A stretch of DNA of 44,842 nucleotides from Anaerolineae bacterium (lineage in GTDB: Bacteria; Chloroflexota; Anaerolineae; Anaerolineales; UBA4823), in assembly GCA_041481345.1 (NCBI GenBank), contig JBGPBQ010000003.1, positions 1 to 44,842 of the forward strand, written 5' to 3'. Under the pieces are notes generated by a model that saw only the letters and a list, made by a program, of their open reading frames with translations, was not told the DNA's origin and made no database searches. The stretch's first letter is position 1. The number at the start of each line of letters is the position of its first letter. Position numbers and translations under genes: made by a program. Below, piece by piece: positions 3,025 through 31,201 of this stretch.

Positions 3025-3038
3025 TGAACGAACGTTCA
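3025..3038. promoter_or_regulatory. Probable TetR operator
   Basis: Palindrome TGAACG-AA-CGTTCA over the predicted transcription start, just upstream of the TetR gene. Confidence 0.7.
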
Positions 3039-3048
3039 TTCAAGGGAT

Positions 3049-3675
3049 GTGGAATTCGATACCATGGTCTCTGCTGTTGATCGCCGCGAACACACCCGTA
3101 CCGCTATCCTGCAGGCCGCCCATGACCTGTTCATCAGACAGGGTTACCATGGCACCTCCATGCGCCAGATTGCCCAGGCTGCCCATATTGCCCTTGGCGG
3201 GCTCTACAACCATTTCCCCAGCAAAGAGAAGGTCTTTGAGGCGGTATTCTTGACTTTTCATCCCTACCATGAGGTTCTACCGATGATTGCCGCTGCAAAA
3301 GGGAATAACCTCAAACAGCTGGTGCAGGATGCCATCCGGCGTATGGAACAGGTCGTCGAAGGGCGTCCAGATTTCATGAACCTGATGTTCATCGAGCTGG
3401 TCGAGTTTAAAAGCGCGCATGCCAGGCAGCTTTTTACCTACCTCTTTCCTCAGGGTATGCAGCTCATGCAGCAGTTGGTTGAATCATATCCCGAGCAGAT
3501 GCGTTCCATCCCAGCCCCTATGGTGGTGCGCACATTCTTGGGCCTGTTTTTTGGGTACTACCTCACCGAAACCGCCCTCGCCCCAGCCGCCCCGCCTGAA
3601 TTTCGCCAGGACGCCATGCAGTATTTTGTGGATATTTATCTCCATGGGATCCTGGCTGTGGAAACCCCCAGTTAA
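3049..3675 (+). CDS. TetR/AcrR family transcriptional regulator
   Basis: ILQAAHDLFIRQGYHGTSMRQIA...GLYNHFPSKEKVF HTH. Confidence 0.95.
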   Translation: MEFDTMVSAVDRREHTRTAILQAAHDLFIRQGYHGTSMRQIAQAAHIALGGLYNHFPSKEKVFEAVFLTFHPYHEVLPMIAAAKGNNLKQLVQDAIRRMEQVVEGRPDFMNLMFIELVEFKSAHARQLFTYLFPQGMQLMQQLVESYPEQMRSIPAPMVVRTFLGLFFGYYLTETALAPAAPPEFRQDAMQYFVDIYLHGILAVETPS

Positions 3676-21984: not shown

Positions 21985-23283
21985 CTAACCCTTCCAAAAC
22001 CGGGACAGGTATCGCCGGTTGATCACCAGCATATCATCCAAAACCGCCTGCACCTGGTCTGCCTTGGGTCCCAGCGGGTGCGCCAGTAGTGCCTGGTAGG
22101 CGGCTTTGCGGTCTCCGTGCACCGCGGCTTCAACCGTGAGCAGCTCATAAGACTTCACCTGTGCCAGCAGACCGAAGCAAACTGGAGGCAGCGGCTCAGC
22201 TGCTAGGGGCTGGACGCCTTCTTTATCGACTTTGCATGGCATCTCGAGCACCCATTCCGCTGGCCACCCTTTCACGGCTCCAGCGTGTGCGGTGTTGACG
22301 ATATGAGTCTCACCCAGGTCGTTGTAATGCGCGTTGAGCAGCTGGGTGGCGACGGTGGAATAGTAGGCCCCACCGCGCAGCATCAAGTCTGCCGGGGGGC
22401 TGCTGAGGGCTGGGTCGGCATATTCCCTGAGCAGGTCTCTCTCGATTTTGATCACTTCCTCCCCCCGTGAGGGAGGCCAGCTGTGCTGTGCTTTCAGCTT
22501 GCGGTCGGTGTGGTAGAAGTACTGCAGGTAATAATTGGGCAGCATTCCCAATATCTCGATCGTGCGCGGCTCCCACTCCGGTTCTGCCTCAGACCGCAGC
22601 TCGTTAAGTGTGGCTTCAATCACCTGCGGCCAGATATCCTCCCCATCAATCGTGAAGCCGCGATGCCAGGAGAGATGGTTCAAACCGAGGGTATTAAGCT
22701 CCGTCCGCTCGGGGGTGACGTCCATGTCATTAAATTCCTTCAACCCTGTGAGGATGCCCATCTTGGTGGTGACCGCTACGTTGCAAACCCCCACCGAGGG
22801 TACCTCCGGGGCATATGTCTGTAACGCCTGGGTGACCAGGCCCGCCGGGTTGGTAAAGTTGGCCAACAACGCGCCCGGGGCACCCAGCTCACGCATATCT
22901 GCCGCAATCTGCAGCACCACCGGGATGGTGCGCAGGGCTTTGGCCATCCCCCCCACGCCGGTCGTCTCCTGACCGATCAATCCGTGCCTGAGTCCCAGGT
23001 ATTCGTCTGCCACGCGTGCCGGCATCTGCCCCACCCGCAGCTGGGTGATGACGTAAGAGGCATTTTGAACAGCAGCCTTCTGGTCCCCCGTCAGCACAAC
23101 CTTGAACGGCTCGCCTTTGGCCTGCACCATGCGCTGAGCGAACCCCCCCACAATATTCAGGCGTTCTGCGTCGATATCCATCAGCCACAGCTCAGTGACG
23201 GGCAGTGTGCCAATCCGCTCGAGGAATCCGTTGACCAGCTCTGGGGTGTAAGTGGACCCCCCGCCGATGACCGCGATTTTCAT
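21985..23283 (-). CDS. Glycoside hydrolase family 4, 6-phospho-beta-glucosidase-like
   Basis: KIAVIGGGSTYTPEL, GQETTGVGG, NFTNP, GVCN, GLNH, RGGAYYS. Confidence 0.93.
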   Translation of the reverse strand: MKIAVIGGGSTYTPELVNGFLERIGTLPVTELWLMDIDAERLNIVGGFAQRMVQAKGEPFKVVLTGDQKAAVQNASYVITQLRVGQMPARVADEYLGLRHGLIGQETTGVGGMAKALRTIPVVLQIAADMRELGAPGALLANFTNPAGLVTQALQTYAPEVPSVGVCNVAVTTKMGILTGLKEFNDMDVTPERTELNTLGLNHLSWHRGFTIDGEDIWPQVIEATLNELRSEAEPEWEPRTIEILGMLPNYYLQYFYHTDRKLKAQHSWPPSRGEEVIKIERDLLREYADPALSSPPADLMLRGGAYYSTVATQLLNAHYNDLGETHIVNTAHAGAVKGWPAEWVLEMPCKVDKEGVQPLAAEPLPPVCFGLLAQVKSYELLTVEAAVHGDRKAAYQALLAHPLGPKADQVQAVLDDMLVINRRYLSRFWKG

Positions 23284-23337
23284 GGTTGCATTCCTTTCAC
23301 GAGGATTGTAGCATTAAATATTTGAAATTATCTAATT

Positions 23338-23367
23338 AACCGCAGATAAACGCAGATTGACACAGAT
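23338..23367 (+). repeat. 10-bp period short repeat (CRCAGAT)
   Basis: CGCAGATAAA CGCAGATTGA CACAGAT. Confidence 0.65.
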
Positions 23368-23395
23368 AATAAGAGAATATTTTATTATTAAGAAT

Positions 23396-23420
23396 GTAGC
23401 CGGGATCGTTGATCCCGGTC
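23396..23420 (+). repeat. REP-like palindrome, CCGGGAT family copy 1
   Basis: GTAG-CCGGGATC-GTT-GATCCCGG-TC. Confidence 0.7.
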
Positions 23421-23519
23421 TTTTGCTTCTTTCATCAAGGACGCCAGGCGGGGCCTTCTAGTTATTCGGTTTTTAATCACTGATATAATCTACGATCAAT
23501 AGGTTCAAGGAGGTATGAA

Positions 23520-23939
23520 ATGACTCAACCAACATTTACCGGTAAAGGAACTGCGAACGATCCTTGGATTCTTCAAACCCCGCCGGGCACATCTGAGTAC
23601 AAAATGTATCGTGACGAAACATCCAACCCGCCCGCCTTAGTTTGCATCGTAGGGACAACCAAGCTCAGTTACCATCTGCGTTGCATTGAAGACCTGCATG
23701 CAATGCTCAAGAAGCACGGCGATTGGATGTTACTCGGTAGTGCTGACGAACAGAAACCAGCCGCGGAAGGAACCGTGGAGGCATGGGCCCGCTCGGTGGA
23801 CAACCCTGTGGGCGGGTGGTATGGATTGAAGAAGGGTCTGCGGGGAAGGTTTGCCATGTACGTACCACCTTTGATGGAAGCTTTAGGGCTGGCAGAGGTC
23901 GAGCACAATGCGAAGAACAATCGCATACGCGCCCTCTGA
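23520..23939 (+). CDS. Conserved hypothetical protein (DUF6855-like)
   Basis: RBS AAGGAGG; GT..DPW.L.TPPG and NPVGGWYGLKKG.RGRF motifs recalled from this family. Confidence 0.75.
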   Translation: MTQPTFTGKGTANDPWILQTPPGTSEYKMYRDETSNPPALVCIVGTTKLSYHLRCIEDLHAMLKKHGDWMLLGSADEQKPAAEGTVEAWARSVDNPVGGWYGLKKGLRGRFAMYVPPLMEALGLAEVEHNAKNNRIRAL

Positions 23940-24280
23940 TATCGTTCCAACCCCAATCTCGTTCTAATAATGCCACCCAACCCCTAGCTAATGGCTGGAG
24001 GTTCGCATTACATCCTTAGATTTCGAGCGATAATTGGTAATGAGTATCGCCAGTTTCGCTACTGCTGAGTCAAGCTTTCAAGCTGCAAAGGTTCATAAGC
24101 TGTTTAGCCACTAAGTCACAACTAATTGATTCGTTCGTCCAGTAGACAATCGAGATAGAATTACTGCTTCTTGTTTAAATTGGTGAACTGGATAGTAGGT
24201 TTTTCTGGCAAAAACGGGATTACGGTTCATCGATTTGGGCAGTACTCTGTTGGAGATAAATTGGTTTCTGGTAATCATGA

Positions 24281-25204
24281 ATGAGAAGCGTTTCAATTAC
24301 TAAACTATTTCAGGTGGCTCGTCCACAATTTTTACTTTGCGGAATGGGTCTATTCGCCTTTGGGGCTCTCTGGGCATTATTATTAGGAGCGCCTTTTTCC
24401 CTTTCGCGGATACTCCTTGGTTACCTGGTCCTTCTACCGGCCCATCTTTCCATTTCCTACAGCAATGACTACTTTGACGTGGATGTCGACAAGTATGGCA
24501 AACCCACTTTCTTCACCGGAGGCAGTGGTGTGCTGGTGGATCACCCCGAGTTGAGAAAACCTGCCCTATGGACTGCGATAACCCTGATCTTGTGCTCCCT
24601 GGCACTTGGAATTGTGTTTCAAATAGTGTATACGTTTCCGATCTGGTTCTTGGGTTTTGTTATATTGGGCAACTTATTAGGCTGGTTTTACTCTGCGCCA
24701 CCTTTAAGGCTTGCTTATCGCGGTTTAGGGGAATTGGCGATGACCTTTTCCATTGGCCTACTGATCCCGGGACTTGGATATCTGGTTACAAGTGGGCAGA
24801 TGAATCTGGATGGATTGCTTTTTCTCGTACCCCTGATGCTATATGGCTTAGCATTCATTCTTACTGTAGAGATACCGGATATGGAATCGGACCGATCAGG
24901 CAATAAGAGGACATGGGTAGCTCAAAAGGGTCGCAGCTTTGGCTTCACAGTAATTGCGACGTCGTTTCTCTTGGCAACAGTATTCTTCTTCTGTTTCCCA
25001 TGGCTAACATCCCGTGCCTATCCGTTGGATTTTCGCATTCTGGGTATACTGTCCCTAATACCTCTCGGAGCAGGTGGCATTGGTCTGCTAAAGAGACGTA
25101 CAGAGAGACAATCGGCTACCCGGATTGTCAACGTGATTATGATCACTATTGCAGCTTTCTGTATCTTGTTAGATGGGTATATGGGTTATCTTATCCTCAG
25201 TTAG
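24281..25204 (+). CDS. UbiA/MenA family prenyltransferase
   Basis: RP, NDYFD..VD, YSAPP.RL.YRG.GE, EIPD.ESD...KRT; polytopic. Confidence 0.9.
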   Translation: MRSVSITKLFQVARPQFLLCGMGLFAFGALWALLLGAPFSLSRILLGYLVLLPAHLSISYSNDYFDVDVDKYGKPTFFTGGSGVLVDHPELRKPALWTAITLILCSLALGIVFQIVYTFPIWFLGFVILGNLLGWFYSAPPLRLAYRGLGELAMTFSIGLLIPGLGYLVTSGQMNLDGLLFLVPLMLYGLAFILTVEIPDMESDRSGNKRTWVAQKGRSFGFTVIATSFLLATVFFFCFPWLTSRAYPLDFRILGILSLIPLGAGGIGLLKRRTERQSATRIVNVIMITIAAFCILLDGYMGYLILS

Positions 25205-25364
25205 ATTGTGTAAGTGAGGATAGAGAAAAAGTGGGAGCCGGATAGAATAAAGCACCAAGCCAAGCCACTAATTTGTCGGTTATTTCAAAGGACCTTTTAG
25301 TAAAGCTCTTATTTCTCAGGTACAGTGGGAAGCACATTAATCTTGACCTGCCGAAAACTATTAA

Positions 25365-25463
25365 TCACCCCGACCGATCCTGGCAATCCTCGTCCTCATC
25401 AATGGGTAGGTAGACTTCCCCGTTGCAACGTAAGCACCTCGAGAGGATACGGACTTTGAGCAT
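25365..25463 (-). CDS. 32-aa CxxC small ORF, possibly a truncated zinc-finger gene
   Basis: RBS AAGGAGG; MLKVRILSRCLRCNGEVYLPIDEDEDCQDRSG*; below the ORF-track cutoff. Confidence 0.5.
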   Translation of the reverse strand: MLKVRILSRCLRCNGEVYLPIDEDEDCQDRSG

Positions 25464-25489
25464 GGTTACCTCCTTTTTTGGATAGAATC

Positions 25490-25614
25490 AAAAAGCCTGC
25501 CTCTCAACCGAGAGGCGGGTGTAGAAAGGACGTGCGATCTTTAGCGGATGGGCAGGCAGCACGGTAGCCTGCACCCCGTGCGCCCATGTGGTGCCTTTCA
25601 GGATCACTGACACC
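25490..25614 (-). ncRNA. Candidate structured leader RNA (three hairpins, the last terminator-like)
   Basis: Stems at 25590-25614, 25548-25587 and 25495-25520, then U5, ahead of the RBS. Confidence 0.4.
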
Positions 25615-25735
25615 AGGGGAAAAAAGAAGTACTTACGTTAACCCTCCCAGAGTTTACTAGTAAACTTTGCTTTCCTCTTTCAAAACCGTGTCATTACCAG
25701 CCCGAGGATTTACCGGGCGAATTGTGAAAAAGTAG

Positions 25736-25763
25736 TTGCAATAATTTAAATTGCATATATACT
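25736..25763 (+). promoter_or_regulatory. Putative promoter with overlapping palindrome
   Basis: TTGCAA, 16 nt, TATACT; TGCAAT-N7-ATTGCA inverted repeat at 25737-25755. Confidence 0.4.
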
Positions 25764-26037
25764 GAATATACCGAAAAATTAGTATTCGTTATAGGAATGT
25801 ATACCATTTGTAGAGTCAGGGTAGTAGCAATGAATTGGATAGAAGGATAAATATGGGGTTATCCCAACGCATCATGCATATTTTCTTCCAGGGAAAAATA
25901 GGTATTCAATAATTCCCTGGATATCATCCAGATACCAATCGTTGGGTTGCCCGCCAATTCCAACAAAAAGTTAAGCGGATGGTTTTGCTGCCCAATCACA
26001 TGAGTGGACATCGATTGCCTCAAGGAGGGATAGCAGT

Positions 26038-27153
26038 ATGAACAACCGATTATGCCGCCTGCCAATAGTGTTTCTACTTGCGACAATTATTCTGGTTTTA
26101 TCCGGTTTGAGTGTGTCTAACTCTGAAGGTGTAAAAGGAGACACCGCAGCTGCAAGCTTTCAAAATATAAGCTGGACTAAGGTGTCTAGTCCGGTGACCG
26201 ACACGCTCAACTCTATCGCAATGGTCTCAGCTAACGATGGCTGGGCAGCTGGAGAAAATGGTGCATTGCTTCATTACGATGGATCGGTGTGGGTATCCTC
26301 CAACCTTCCCTTGACAATGACACTATTCTCAGTGTCCATGTCATCAGAGAATAATGGATGGGCAGTAGGGGCGGATAATATCCCCCCTGGTAATGGCATC
26401 CTATTACGTTGGAATGGTATTGGGTGGCAGTCTGTTCCGAAGCCATCGATTCCATGGCCGTTCTATATGACGGATGTCTCGGTTCCGAATGACACGAGTG
26501 CGTGGATCGCTGGCGGAATTATTGTATGCTCGGTTGGGCCCCCGTGTGTTCCCACCGACGCACTTGGCACAATTGCTTATTGGGATGGCAGTATATGGAG
26601 TACCTATCAGATTTCTGACGTATTTCTATCATCTATTTACATGATAAGTGATACCAATGGCTGGGCGGTAGGAACCGAGGTGGTTCAACCTACGAAGGAA
26701 TTACGAAGTTCAATAATGCACTGGGATGGCAGCAGCTGGAGTAGTGTCGCTCATCCCACCATTGTTTATCCACCTGGAAATTATCAAAGTATTCTCGAAG
26801 AAGTCACTGCACTAAATGCAACCAATGCCTGGTCTGCTGTCTCTAACCAAAACACTTTTCTACATTGGGACGGAATGGCATGGACCCAAGTGGACAGCCC
26901 AGTGAGGGGAAAGCCTTCCTTAGCTGTCATTTCCACCAATGATGCGTGGGCGGTAGGAGGTGAAGGTGATATAGGATATTGGGATGGCAATATCTGGACC
27001 CAAGTGTCCAGTCCAGTAACCGTAACCCTTACTTCTGTAGCAATGGTTTCGATCAATGACGGTTGGGCAGTTGGGTATGGCGGCGCAATTCTACACGGCA
27101 TTGGTTTTCAGGGAATTGGCTTTCAGATATTCTTACCTTTGGCCTGGAAGTAA
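26038..27153 (+). CDS. Secreted beta-propeller repeat protein (YCF48/BNR-like)
   Basis: Signal peptide; repeats L.S..M.S.NDGWAVG...ILHWDG..W; ends IFLPLAWK. Confidence 0.85.
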   Translation: MNNRLCRLPIVFLLATIILVLSGLSVSNSEGVKGDTAAASFQNISWTKVSSPVTDTLNSIAMVSANDGWAAGENGALLHYDGSVWVSSNLPLTMTLFSVSMSSENNGWAVGADNIPPGNGILLRWNGIGWQSVPKPSIPWPFYMTDVSVPNDTSAWIAGGIIVCSVGPPCVPTDALGTIAYWDGSIWSTYQISDVFLSSIYMISDTNGWAVGTEVVQPTKELRSSIMHWDGSSWSSVAHPTIVYPPGNYQSILEEVTALNATNAWSAVSNQNTFLHWDGMAWTQVDSPVRGKPSLAVISTNDAWAVGGEGDIGYWDGNIWTQVSSPVTVTLTSVAMVSINDGWAVGYGGAILHGIGFQGIGFQIFLPLAWK

Positions 27154-27215
27154 TTCAAAACAGATATTTGTGTTATTCCTTTGTGTCCCTGGTGTCCTTA
27201 GTGGTTTTCTTTTCT

Positions 27216-27270
27216 TAGGGGTGCGACGAGGCCGGTCAGCTCTACGACCGAAGCGTCACTGCGCCCTTAC
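27216..27270. repeat. Degenerate REP-like inverted repeat
   Basis: TAGGGGTGCGACG...CGTCACTGCGCCCTTAC with an inner GGTC/GACC stem. Confidence 0.45.
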
Positions 27271-27307
27271 TACTTCAGCTCGCTTCGGCCTCCTCATGCT
27301 TATCATT

Positions 27308-27369
27308 GTACGGGCGCAGGGGAGAAATCCCTACTGATTCATGTTTATATTCCTCCCCTGCGCCCCTAC
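27308..27369. repeat. GTAG-type REP doublet
   Basis: GTACGGGCGCAGGGGAG ... CTCCCCTGCGCCCCTAC, 16/17 inverted match. Confidence 0.7.
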
Positions 27370-27704
27370 CGGTCCTATCTATAAAAAAATTGGCTCTTAT
27401 AGGGTTTCAAGGAGGTGGTCAAATGAGAGCCAGGAAACTTGATGGAAGGTACGACGACATCATCATGGCACTACACTTCGATTCGTGATCAGCGGCCACA
27501 TCACGCGCGGAAGCAATGCGAGAACGCGCCAAAATAGGAAAAGGGAGTAATCGCCTGAACTACATTCCCAAATCCAGCGGGATAAACTTCCCGAAGGATT
27601 GGGAATCCATCTGATGACGCGGGAAGACCCCCGTGCTATACTTTATGCAATCAATCAAGGCGACCATGTTGTGGCTTTTCACCTTCACTTAGAAAGGTCT
27701 AAGT

Positions 27705-28754
27705 ATGATGTTCCGAAAAATTCTCGCCTTTAGCCTGACGCTTGTTCTTACGGCTTGCGGAATTCAGCCAACGCCTCATCTAACCCCTACACCTTTCACG
27801 GGTACAGTGCGTCCCGTCATCATTGACACGGATATGGCGGCTGACGATTGGATGGCAATCCTGTACCTGCTTAATCGTCCAGATGTAAGCGTAGCAGCGA
27901 TCACAGTTTCAGGGACAGGCGAAGCGCACTGCGAGCCGGGTATTAAAAATGCCATGAGTCTGACTGCTTTGGCTGGACAACCAGATATTCCTGTCAGTTG
28001 CGGGCGTACCACTCCCTTGCAAGGAGATCATGCCTTTCCACCGGATTGGCGCACCAGGGTGGATGCCTTAGCCGGACTTACCCTTCAAAGCAATCCTGCT
28101 TCTGTTACGCCTCAATCTGCTGTAGATTTGCTCACAGCCAAAATCATATCAATGCCCGACAAAGTGACGATCATCACGCTTGGTCCGCTCACCAATCTGG
28201 CTGAGGCGCTGCAATCTGCTCCTGAAATCAAGGAAAACATAGAGATGGTCTATATGGTGGGCGGCGCGGTGGATGTACCCGGCAATGTGGGGATTTCCCA
28301 CGCGGGCATCGACAACTCGGTGGCTGATTGGAATATTTATGTGGACCCGCGCGCAGCTGCCATCGTTCTCCAGTCCGGCGTGCCGGTTACCCTCGTCCCG
28401 CTGGACGCGACCAATCACGTTCCCGTTACTACGAATTTTATTGAACGCCTCAAGAAAGATCGTAAAACGCCTGAAGCCATGTTTGTCTTCGAGGTGTTGT
28501 CACAATCACAATACTACGATTTCGTTCAGTCTGGAGGGTACTATTTTTGGGATCCACTTGCAGCCGCGATCCTTACCGATAACTCGCTGGCAGCTTTCGA
28601 AACCCGGAACCTTACCGTCATCGAAGAGGAAAGCAATCAAAGCGGGCGCACGCAAGCGAGCGAGAGCGGCGCCCCCGTTCGTGTGGCTGTGGACGTTGAG
28701 GCTGAACGCTTTGAGCAATTGTTTCTGGATACGCTGAATACTCCTGAGAAATAA
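27705..28754 (+). CDS. Nucleoside hydrolase (IUNH family) with lipoprotein signal
   Basis: LTAC lipobox; DTDMAADD, LGPLTNLA, GGAVDVPGN, WNIYVDP, PLDAT, FWDPLAA. Confidence 0.92.
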   Translation: MMFRKILAFSLTLVLTACGIQPTPHLTPTPFTGTVRPVIIDTDMAADDWMAILYLLNRPDVSVAAITVSGTGEAHCEPGIKNAMSLTALAGQPDIPVSCGRTTPLQGDHAFPPDWRTRVDALAGLTLQSNPASVTPQSAVDLLTAKIISMPDKVTIITLGPLTNLAEALQSAPEIKENIEMVYMVGGAVDVPGNVGISHAGIDNSVADWNIYVDPRAAAIVLQSGVPVTLVPLDATNHVPVTTNFIERLKKDRKTPEAMFVFEVLSQSQYYDFVQSGGYYFWDPLAAAILTDNSLAAFETRNLTVIEEESNQSGRTQASESGAPVRVAVDVEAERFEQLFLDTLNTPEK

Positions 28755-28758
28755 AGTT

Positions 28759-29767
28759 GGCTCTTTAATAAAATCAAGGAGGTAGTCACAGGAGAAGCAA
28801 GCTGGTAATATAAGAGCATGTTACTCCATATTGATGACTTGATAGACGAGCAGAAATGCTATGAAGAAGTGCGCCAGATGCGCTGGGCCAAAGGGGTGGG
28901 CTGCCCGTATTGCAACGCCAAGCTAATCAACAAGCGTGGTTTTCATACGCATCAAGCTCACCGGCAGCGCTATCACTGCCAGGTGTGTGGCAAGCAGTTT
29001 GATGATTTGACCGGAACCATCTTTGAAGGCCATCACCAGCCTCTGAAGACCTGGATCTTGTGCCTGTACTTCATGGGCTTGAACCTTTCCAATCAACAGA
29101 TAGCCGCCGAGCTGGACTTATCTGCCAGTGAAGTGCAAGCGATGACCAGCCAATTGCGGGAAGGGATCGTGGCAAAAAAAAGCCCGTCACCCTAAAGGGC
29201 GAGATCGAAGCTGACGAAGTGTACATTACTGCTGGCCACAAAGGCCATCCCGCAGTCGTGGCTCGCTTGGGACGAGCAGGTAGACGCAGAAAGCTGCGCG
29301 GCAAACGCGGGCGGGGGACGCTGGCCGACGAAAAACCGCCGGTGTTGGGCATGTTACAGCGTAACGGAGAAGTGGTCATCCAGATGCTCCCTAATGTCCA
29401 GCAGGTGACGATCCAACCCTTGATCCAAGAAACGGTTGTTCCCGGTAGCTTGATCTACACCGATGAGTATGACATCTATGACCGCTTACCCGTCTGGGGC
29501 TATGCCCACAAATCCGTCAACCATGGCGCTGGCGAGTTTGCCCGAGACGAAGATGGCGATGGCTTCTGCGAAGTACATGTCAACACCCTGGAGGGCTTTT
29601 GGTCCTTGCTACGTTCGTGGTTGCGACCGCATCGCGGCGTTTCTCAGGAGAAGTTGCCCTGGTACTTGGGTTTCTTCTAGTTCGTCCATAATATTCGCCA
29701 GCGGGGCAAAGCCCTGCTTCATTCGTTGGTGGCTACATTAGTAGCTCCTTGAAACTGTTAAAGAGCC
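28759..29767 (+). mobile_element. IS1595 family (ISXO2-like) insertion sequence, 1009 bp
   Basis: TIRs GGCTCTTTAA.....TCAAGGAG at both ends (19/23); zinc-ribbon + DDE transposase. Confidence 0.92.
28818..29752 (+). pseudogene. IS1595 transposase: -1 frameshift at A8 and in-frame amber near the C-terminus
   Basis: CPYC..C..C ribbon; -1 frame after A8 (29174-29181) gives EADEVY, IYTDEY, HVNTLEGFWS; TAG 29678-29680 interrupts GFF*FVHN. Confidence 0.8.
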
Positions 29768-29855
29768 AAAAAATTTTGTAGCCTTTTGTGTACTTTGTGG
29801 GGTTCTTTCTATAAATATTCCACTAGGTTATCAGCGCGCTCTGCTTTCACACAAA

Positions 29856-29880
29856 GACCGGGATCCCCAATCCCGGTTAC
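29856..29880 (-). repeat. REP-like palindrome, CCGGGAT family copy 2
   Basis: Minus strand GTAACCGGGATTGGGGATCCCGGTC. Confidence 0.65.
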
Positions 29881-30051
29881 CGGATATCAAGGAACGTATC
29901 TTGCGACGAAGCGACGCGCTGTGTTCTTTACAAGCGTCAAAATATGCTCAATGTGAGCGATATATATCATGAGATTGGGTCGAGGGTTCGTGCCCAACCC
30001 AACCTTCCTCCTACCAACCCTGATATCTCAGATATATTGTTGTGTGTGCCT

Positions 30052-30273
30052 CTACATATGCAGATATTTAAGCGCCTCAAAAATCAGCAGCGCTGGCCAG
30101 ACAATGCCCTTTAAAAATCCTAAAACACCCAGCCAGAACGTGGCAGCGTGGCCGATGAAATATACCCACGCACCGATCAGGCCCAATCCATAAACTGCGC
30201 CACCGGCGCCATTGCGGTAAATCACTTTTGGTTTTTCGCGTATGATTTGAATGGGGGTAGGTTCTGTAGTCAT
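30052..30273 (-). CDS. Small membrane protein (2 TM)
   Basis: GAVYGLGLIGAWVYFI...FLKGIVWPA; ATG 30273 after GAGGTG. Confidence 0.75.
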   Translation of the reverse strand: MTTEPTPIQIIREKPKVIYRNGAGGAVYGLGLIGAWVYFIGHAATFWLGVLGFLKGIVWPALLIFEALKYLHM

Positions 30274-30431
30274 GGTATTCACCTCGGGGAAATATCTATA
30301 TTACAGCATATATACGGTAAAACACCGGTTAAAGTTGCGCTCTGCCCGGTACAGCTTTATATTGGCATATCCAATGAAACCGCTGAATAGGCGGGAAACA
30401 CACCGCACTCTGGGATCCCGCACTAAAAAAT

Positions 30432-30455
30432 GCCGGGATCGACGATCCTGGCTAC
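30432..30455 (-). repeat. REP-like palindrome, CCGGGAT family copy 3
   Basis: Minus strand GTAGCCAGGATCGTCGATCCCGGC. Confidence 0.65.
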
Positions 30456-30466
30456 AGATTCTATAA

Positions 30467-30533
30467 GGGCGAAGCATCATTTAGAACAGAAGCAATTATC
30501 CATATTGCTACCTAGCTGATGCTTCGCCCCAAC
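30467..30533 (-). repeat. REP-like long inverted repeat abutting the acyltransferase stop
   Basis: GGGCGAAGCATCA / TGATGCTTCGCCC 13-bp perfect stem; GTTG head on the minus strand. Confidence 0.65.
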
Positions 30534-31201
30534 TATAAATCAATATACCTCGTGCTGGCATTCGCTCCATCAGCATAAACCCCGCGGTACTCCGGCGGCA
30601 GCACCAACGCCAGCTGGTACATCATTTCCTCCACCATCGCCTGCCTCACCTCACGCGTCACTTTTTCCCCACGGGTTTCCAGGTGAAAAGGTGTCCCCAC
30701 CCGCAGGTGAAAATCGGTGCGCTTCAGCCTGCGCAGGTTCTCGGTGTAGTTCTCAGCCCCGTAAAATCCCACCGGCAGCAGGGGAGCCCCGCTGTGCAGC
30801 GCCAGCAACACCACCCCCGGGTGAGCAGGCTGCAGCTTCCCATCGTGACTGCGCGTGCCTTCGGGTGCAATGATCAGCATCTCGCCCCTCTCGAGTGCTT
30901 CCAGGCCGGTGCGGATGGCGGAAAAATCCGCCTCGCCTCGGTGCAAGGGGATTGTCCTGGTCACATCCAGAGTCCAATTAAGTATGGGGATTTTCCAACG
31001 TTCAGCGAGCAGCATCCCGCGCACCCTGCGCGGTTGCAGGTGGGTGTATGTGATCGGGATTTCGAGGATATTGACGTGGTTGGTGTAGATGATCAGCGGT
31101 CCCTGCCGTGGGACGCGCTCCAGCTCTTTATCGTCGATGCGGCAGATCAGGCCGGTGAGCCCCTTCGATACGTTTACGACCAGCCAATGCGCTACGCTCA
31201 C
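30533..31201 (-). CDS. Lysophospholipid acyltransferase (PlsC-like)
   Basis: NH....E variant of HxxxxD, APEGTRS. Confidence 0.88.
   Translation of the reverse strand: MSVAHWLVVNVSKGLTGLICRIDDKELERVPRQGPLIIYTNHVNILEIPITYTHLQPRRVRGMLLAERWKIPILNWTLDVTRTIPLHRGEADFSAIRTGLEALERGEMLIIAPEGTRSHDGKLQPAHPGVVLLALHSGAPLLPVGFYGAENYTENLRRLKRTDFHLRVGTPFHLETRGEKVTREVRQAMVEEMMYQLALVLPPEYRGVYADGANASTRYIDL

Follow-up and report, generated by a model that had tools for sequence, protein, structure and literature searches.

The DNA analysed here is a stretch of 44,842 nucleotides (hereafter the window), i.e., contig 3 of the draft genome of an Anaerolineae bacterium (GCA_041481345.1; 368 contigs, 3.9 Mb or 3,903,780 bases, 85% complete). 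It contains a 2376-bp unit (27392-29767) in which an outer left end (O), a leader, and a nucleoside hydrolase gene are followed by a 1009-bp insertion sequence (IS) of the IS1595 family. We consider it probable that this unit is a hybrid gene-carrying transposon, assembled in two steps and bounded on its left by the genuine stub of another family member. According to this model, the hydrolase and a 313-bp leader would have formed a mobile cassette, the left border of which was the 43-nt stub O. A different IS of the same family (1009 bp) would have inserted 4 bases past the hydrolase stop codon, at the target ATAAAGTT (step 1). We infer that the transposase of this IS, or that of a relative acting in trans, paired O with the right end of the IS, and that O, leader, hydrolase, and IS would by this way have moved as one into an A/T-rich spot of a repeat region, generating a duplication of AAAAAATT (step 2). 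The second copy of ATAAAGTT and the remainder of the old element would have stayed at the donor site. Afterwards, the transposase gene of this copy acquired a TAG codon at 29678, close to its end.

The unit is bracketed on both sides by the identical 8-mer AAAAAATT (8/8), and O begins with GGCTCTTATAGGGTTTCAAGGAGGTGGTCA, immediately after the left copy of this 8-mer. The IS proper (28759-29767) begins with GGCTCTTTAATAAAATCAAGGAGG..., and its right end reads, in reverse complement, GGCTCTTTAACAGTTTCAAGGAGC... The right end resembles O and the internal left end equally well in the core (19/23 each), with 23/30 for the internal left end and 22/30 for O over 30 nt. A preliminary description of this DNA had already pointed out the left-type end at 27392, as close to the right end as the true left end is, the identical 8-mers outside the unit, and the intact hydrolase inside it; our analysis confirms the coordinates and sequences of the ends, the 8-mers, and the gene. 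The same description called the flanks of the IS proper mismatched. They are indeed not identical (ATAAAGTT on the left vs AAAAAATT on the right), but neither are they wholly unlike, as six of the eight positions agree; a match short of 8/8 is what one expects if, as in the two-step model, the right duplicate of the first insertion was left behind at the donor site. In the 3,903,780-base assembly, the pattern GGCTCTT-N8-12-CAAGGAG is confined to this locus, where it is met three times (27392, 28759, and 29767). A search for the 23-mer ends with up to six mismatches detected nothing closer than five mismatches elsewhere in the assembly, and blastn, tblastn, and pattern searches found no further copy of the unit or of the IS in the source genome.

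The outer left end and the IS-free cassette

As judged by alignment, O is a 43-nt stub of a genuine IS1595-type left end, fused to unrelated leader DNA. It matches the left end of a solo IS in the related genome G481 at 36 of 43 bases and then at 4 of the 17 that follow; for the window's own IS left end, the corresponding figures against the same G481 end are 32/43 and 15/17. Beyond the 23-nt core (positions 24-45), the majority consensus of seven O copies agrees with the window IS left end at 15 of 22 bases, a level attained by just 12 of 200,000 random 22-mers of the window. O is therefore a real element end, and its 43-nt match to IS left ends includes a part that lies past the inverted repeat.

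A DNA search of 40 relatives found O together with the leader in three genomes of the same genus (G019, G001, and G021), and exact-pattern scans added four metagenome contigs (L026, L027, L028, and L029). Seven of these copies (two in G019 and one each in G001, L026, L027, L028, and L029), aligned base for base, start exactly at the base equivalent to 27392 and set the left boundary of the cassette; the eighth, from G021, differs by a variant end, shorter by one base, and was counted apart. Four of the seven extend into the hydrolase. The DNA left of O differs between copies, with at least six distinct left junctions, all of them A/T-rich (AAAAAATT, TTGATTTT, TTGATTAA / TTTTGTTA, ATAAAAAAA, TTGGCCAA, and ATTGTTTT). 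Because O bounds IS-free copies at several sites, it already served as an element border before the present IS came.

Three copies (G019, L026, and L029) hold the whole segment 27392-28758 at 97-98% identity, with no IS at 28758. They read ...GAGAAATAAAGTT, then AAGCACAGCC, then C or T, then CGAAGGTTTGTTCGTTCGACTGGTGCAATTCACC, with 45 shared bases past 28758; in other words, ATAAAGTT, ending in AAAGTT, runs unbroken into AAGCACAGCC. A contig of the public run X4 likewise passes 28758 into the AAGCACAGCC tail without an IS. In the window, the IS lies exactly at the boundary between ATAAAGTT and AAGCAC, and the 45-base tail is absent. Since the IS-free copies are continuous across 28758, this comparison shows the 1009-bp IS to be a later insertion at ATAAAGTT, 4 bases past the hydrolase stop. 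It is also shown, at the level of sequence comparison, that the O-hydrolase cassette, found in related Chloroflexia genomes and metagenomes, was already mobile before the present IS.

Past the 45 shared bases lie the inverted and decayed remains of an IS1595-type transposase gene. In G019, this remnant spans the A-run to the motif GRGT, with 146 aligned bases 77% identical to the window IS, and a diverged inverted left end was read by eye beyond it. In L026 and L029, the remnant comprises the last codons only (...RGKALLHSL..., translations by eye), without a right repeat.

Several features were noted around the left junctions. The cassette of L028 (flank at 1215-1228) and the solo IS of G481 (L059) both lie behind the 8-mer ATTGTTTT; 12 of 14 flanking bases agree and the DNA is unrelated farther out, a sharing that may reflect a target preference. 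Several O junctions come directly after terminator-like hairpins with T-runs (read by eye). Left of the cassette in L026 (2540-2800) and L029 (4100-4400, minus strand), a tyrosine-recombinase-like frame has been joined to the final 100 bases of an ABC-transporter ATPase gene, the very gene next to the cassette in G001 and G019. Read by eye, the join at a shared CTGCGCCTGCGC in these two contigs suggests a further rearrangement, carrying the cassette together with a piece of its old flank.

Proposed mobilisation of the unit and alternative histories

The preliminary description had taken target duplications of about 8 bp as established for this family, and we did find them. Among the four relatives with both ends, three present perfect 8-bp duplications (G318, TTCAATTT; G408, TAAGGCAA; G481, ATTGTTTT), and the fourth, an internally deleted copy in G138, has none. 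The G481 relative, obtained by a family-level search, is a solo intact IS, 84% identical over its full length.

The unit was also encountered elsewhere. In the soil metagenome X3, which comes from another study, one contig of 1857 bp matches 27392-29237; the match sets in exactly at 27392, after 10 unmatched letters. A second X3 contig covers 29322-29768 and continues with 83 letters unlike the window (...TGAATAATTGC...), the DNA right of the right end beginning with ATGAATAA. Although the unit boundaries sit on two separate contigs, X3 appears to hold the O-hydrolase-IS unit with both boundaries unchanged and set in different DNA. In the sediment runs X1 and X2, contigs extend over the left flank, O, the hydrolase, the internal IS end, and the right junction, all as in the window. 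Because these contigs span the junctions, the arrangement, as far as contig alignments tell, is not an artefact of the source assembly, even though X1 or X2 may be the source sample. Word shares in runs X5-X20 (0.34-0.50) do not enter the evidence.

These observations separate what stands from what falls in the two-step history proposed by the preliminary description. The insertion of an IS at the hydrolase stop is borne out by the IS-free copies (G019, L026, L029, and X4), and the mobilisation of the unit from its outer end to the IS right end by the 8/8 repeat, the duplications in three of four relatives, and the X3 context. The idea of a one-ended event from a chance site is not retained, because O would be what survives of the left end of an older relative and was already bounding the cassette.

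Several points weigh against the two-step model. The right flank of the X3 copy has no known place: a 30-mer from it was not found in the source genome or the stored loci (up to five mismatches), nor in 61 genomes, i.e., the source and 60 relatives (up to three mismatches). A strict empty site, with 27391 adjoining 29776, did not turn up in 40 relatives by a DNA search with 26000-31200, by tblastx synteny, or by a search with the BNR-like protein encoded nearby. No contig of X1-X4 joins the two sides across the unit, which is a weak negative, as contigs drop rare variants. No right end that could have served the earlier moves of the older cassette was found either: no right-end-like 23-mer (up to six mismatches) is present in L026, L029, or the G019 locus, and no right inverted repeat lies in the 45-85 bases after the hydrolase. 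Both the unit and the IS are present as a single copy in the 85%-complete draft, and the transposase gene of the window carries a nonsense codon. Lastly, O, which this transposase is presumed to recognise, shares only 16 of 23 core positions with the internal left end of the IS.

These points leave room for other histories. The old cassette could have inserted at AAAAAATT by itself and received the IS later, a deletion from the IS right end to the old right border, either transposase-mediated or by recombination between similar right-facing ends, having then made the present border, so that the O-to-right-end unit never moved here. We regard this as unlikely. The old cassette was mobile and common, deletions next to an IS begin precisely at one of its ends, and the diverged inverted left end read by eye past the G019 remnant means that two similar ends could once have faced alike. 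However, such a deletion must also have stopped exactly at the outermost base of the old element, and there is no trace of the old tail right of 29767. Moreover, X3 appears to have the unit with the same boundaries in different DNA, so that the unit would have moved at least once either way. Still less probable, and in our view very unlikely, is that the match between the two copies of AAAAAATT is a coincidence of A/T-rich targets, with unrelated rearrangements or a chimeric metagenome assembly behind the junctions. The family does target A/T-rich DNA, and the region is rich in repeats, many contigs breaking at 27173-27212. But AAAAAATT is rare even among A/T-only 8-mers (199 occurrences on both strands of the assembly, about 2.5e-5 per position, where A/T-only 8-mers occupy 28,533 positions), and the independent X1, X2, and X3 contigs reproduce the junctions.

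The origin of O itself gives rise to another alternative. The preliminary description called the outer end cryptic and perhaps fortuitous, lying in a donor gene with a GNAT-like C-terminus, and the mobilisation one-ended. On this reading, O would be a chance look-alike of an IS end near the 3' terminus of a GNAT gene and would have been used once, in an event of the ISEcp1 type. The frame through O (GFQGGGQ.RARKLDGRYDDIIMAL), which ends in ...ALHFDS* and not in ...ALHF* as first stated, loosely resembles GNAT C-termini, and O matches the right end no better than the true left end does. This is nevertheless the least credible of the histories weighed here, and we hold it to be highly improbable. 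Indeed, the 60-aa frame has no Pfam family at E 0.01, G019 and G001 do not have the start codon of this short frame, and tblastn of the 31-aa peptide returns cassette copies only. The ORFs (open reading frames) of at least 60 aa upstream of ten distant hydrolase homologs are unalike (compared by eye, no Pfam scan). The first 43 nt are IS-derived, as indicated by the match to G481, half of the peptide being encoded by IS-derived sequence, and the left boundary is common to seven copies, O bordering IS-free copies at several sites before this IS came.

Transposase, passenger gene, and genomic setting

The 1009-bp IS presents the features of the IS1595 family, namely a DDE domain, a zinc ribbon, inverted repeats, and, in its relatives, an 8-bp duplication. 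ORF1 passes the Pfam zinc-ribbon model (31.8 bits vs a cut-off of 25.4) and the NCBIfam model NF050000 of the IS1/IS1595 zinc domain (30.2 vs 28). ORF2 (29180/29219-29680) passes the Pfam DDE model (E 2.7e-25; 89.6 bits vs 27) and the NCBIfam IS1595 transposase model NF033547 (109.6 bits vs 75), and it remains under the cut-off of the IS1 equivalog model (33.7 bits vs 100). The ends starting with GGCTCTT presumably resemble those of the ISH4 group.

The IS1595 family is described in ISfinder with a single transposase reading frame. On the contrary, two frames are found here, with a -1 shift at an A7/A8 run. Among nine copies with both transposase parts, seven, from six genomes, keep this layout: those of the window, G408 (two copies), G095, G318, G258, and G481 (loci L031, L032, L033, L034, L046, and L059 besides the window). 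The predicted product over the shift reads ...KKKPV..GEIE.DEV. In the G138 copy (L035), the run is interrupted (AAGAAAAAG) and the two parts are naturally fused in frame; in a truncated G258 copy, the register is not kept. That the gene is divided between two frames thus probably reflects an IS1-style recoding, ribosomal or transcriptional, and not decay. In a limited full-text literature search, we met no report of a frameshift in the IS1595 family. An IS variant was also observed in L013 (G021:C22), at about 3026-3134, where about 25 bases separate the left repeat from the A-run and DDE part; the variant lacks the whole zinc-ribbon ORF, and the contig ends inside it.

The in-frame TAG of the window copy (29678-29680) is damage and removes the last 24 transposase codons (29681-29749), the natural ORF2 stop being a TGA at 29750-29752, inside the right repeat. 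The codon at 29678 is GAG in X3 and G481 but TAG in X1 and X2, which share the locus of the window; the nonsense change therefore arose at this site, and the window copy probably lost autonomous movement after its arrival.

The passenger gene, an intact ORF, resembles RihA/RihC in NCBIfam, at scores under the equivalog cut-offs. The N-terminus of its product looks like a lipoprotein signal (...LTAC..., lipobox read by eye). O and the leader together occupy 313 bp (27392-27704) ahead of its start. The fold z-score of the leader is -2.1, and its sequence has no match in Rfam at E 0.1, nor at E 10 beyond noise. None of its 88 predicted pairs shows a compensatory change in seven near-identical copies, which are too alike to test pairing. 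A long imperfect hairpin (27562-27607) and a terminator-like hairpin (27618-27642), the latter overlapping a promoter-like site, were noted in it, and the leader pattern has no match in viral contigs.

Table 1. Features of the unit and of its borders (positions in the window).
Feature	Position	Strand	Evidence
Left copy of the target duplication, AAAAAATT	27384..27391		Identical to 29768-29775
Outer end O, 43 nt left over from an IS1595-type left end (inverted repeat and subterminal region)	27392..27434	+	19/23 to the right end; 36/43 to the G481 IS left end
Leader between stub and hydrolase start	27435..27704	+	Travels with O in every copy; 93-98% conserved
Passenger gene, inosine-uridine-type nucleoside hydrolase	27705..28754	+	Pfam IU_nuc_hydro, E 6.5e-63
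ATAAAGTT, inferred target of the first insertion, overlapping the hydrolase stop codon	28751..28758		Unbroken ATAAAGTT/AAGCACAGCC in IS-free copies
Left inverted repeat of the incoming IS, lying inside the present unit	28759..28788	+	23/30 to the right end; aligns with left ends of relatives
Transposase ORF1, with the zinc ribbon, presumed to bind DNA	28818..29195	+	Pfam Zn_ribbon_IS1595; NCBIfam IS1/IS1595 zinc domain
A8 run, ORF1-to-ORF2 -1 frame change; candidate programmed frameshift or transcriptional slippage site	29174..29181	+	Same layout in 7/9 copies
Transposase ORF2 (DDE domain), shortened here by TAG	29180..29752	+	Pfam DDE_Tnp_IS1595; NCBIfam IS1595 transposase
Right inverted repeat of the IS, which also ends the 2376-bp unit	29738..29767	-	End comparison
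Right copy of the target duplication, AAAAAATT	29768..29775		X3 DNA differs beyond the right end

As for the setting, the 23.3-30.05 kb segment is absent (tblastx) from four relatives with conserved synteny (G002, G016, G008, and G011), in which the gene matching 21985-23283 directly adjoins a small membrane-protein gene matching 30052-30282. The extra 6.7-kb segment of the window (23300-30050) carries an unnamed 139-aa ORF, a UbiA-like prenyltransferase, a BNR-like secreted protein, short repeats, and the unit. No ortholog of the BNR-like gene is found in 40 relatives, the best match having 42% identity. Because the four syntenic relatives lack the segment entirely, the hydrolase does not, as gene order indicates, belong to the resident genes of the locus. 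The preliminary description would have doubted its own history had relatives carried the hydrolase here without the IS; no relative carries the hydrolase at this locus. The insertion target is a repeat-rich intergenic stretch, and two short-repeat families (about 27176-27215 and 27303-27375) recur on many source contigs and in most relatives; these left-flank families fit the insertion into a cluster of repetitive extragenic palindromic (REP) sequences that the preliminary description had seen. Many metagenome contigs break at the first of them, at 27173-27212.

The small membrane-protein gene (30052-30282, minus strand) has a homologue in L002 (G019), at about 3050-3270 (...GAVYGLG.IGA...GFLK..VWP...), so that such a gene adjoins the right end in the window and the outer left end in G019. 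This adjacency is probably that of a paralog and a coincidence, because a closer match exists elsewhere in G019.

Relation to known gene-carrying elements

Transporter ISs (tIS) of the IS1595 family are said to have been described by Siguier, Gagnevin, and Chandler in 2009. In IS1, the transposase is made via a -1 frameshift at an A-run. The IS of the window shares with IS1 the upstream zinc-finger ORF, the A-run, and the downstream DDE ORF in the -1 frame, and its N-terminal part matches the zinc model common to IS1 and IS1595; it differs in its catalytic part, which passes the IS1595 model and not the IS1 model. In the case of ISEcp1, a genuine IS end pairs with a distant alternative end and carries neighbouring DNA along. 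Here, in contrast, the alternative end would be a true IS remnant and not a weak chance match, and it would replace the left end rather than the right one. Mobile insertion cassettes, of which MIC231 is an example, offer a further comparison. The ISsaga paper (PMC3129680) presents solo inverted repeats and transposase-less cassettes as activatable by a cognate transposase. The solo repeats, MITEs (miniature inverted-repeat transposable elements), and mobile insertion cassettes treated there are transposase-less remnants with an IS end moved by a related transposase, a picture that the older O-hydrolase cassette fits. The difference is that the helper IS of the present unit lies in cis and would supply the second end, and that the old cassette yielded no right repeat.

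According to the TnCentral preprint (10.1101/2021.05.26.445724), transporter ISs are ISs with passenger genes and are reported as restricted to the IS1595 and IS66 families. The 2376-bp unit has their structure: O and the right end enclose the hydrolase and the transposase, IS1595-type repeats stand at both ends, an unrelated passenger lies beside a single transposase gene, and the 8-bp duplication of AAAAAATT surrounds the whole. It differs from them in that it retains a third, internal left end between cargo and transposase, and in that a diverged family member supplied its outer left end; IS-free precursors make the capture readable. With compound transposons, also treated in that preprint, it has in common a cargo moved by the outer ends of two IS-derived sequences; the left "IS" is, however, a 43-nt stub, and the ends are left ends of different relatives in direct orientation rather than a pair of copies from a single IS. 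We considered the unit as a compound transposon and rejected this assignment, 43 nt of IS being present left of the cargo and no second transposase copy in the genome.

Element and cargo are otherwise ordinary, i.e., an exported nucleoside hydrolase in uncultured Chloroflexia of sediment and soil. The interest lies in the route of capture. Transporter ISs blur the line between insertion sequence and transposon, and the way they acquire passengers has mostly been guessed from finished products; here, the precursor, the IS insertion, and the product, apparently at two sites, can be compared. The comparison supports a capture route in which the decayed ends of one family member are reusable by another, stranded cargo thus staying in the mobile gene pool. 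Beyond this unit, we put forward tentatively, as a possibility rather than a probability, that left-end stubs act as docking points for capture: an incoming family member would pair its right end with a heterologous stub and turn an orphan cassette into an autonomous transporter IS, the internal left end would be short-lived, and the IS1-like -1 recoding would link the two families. If this is true, the present locus, its IS-free precursors, and the second-site copy would together be a natural record of the birth of a transporter IS.

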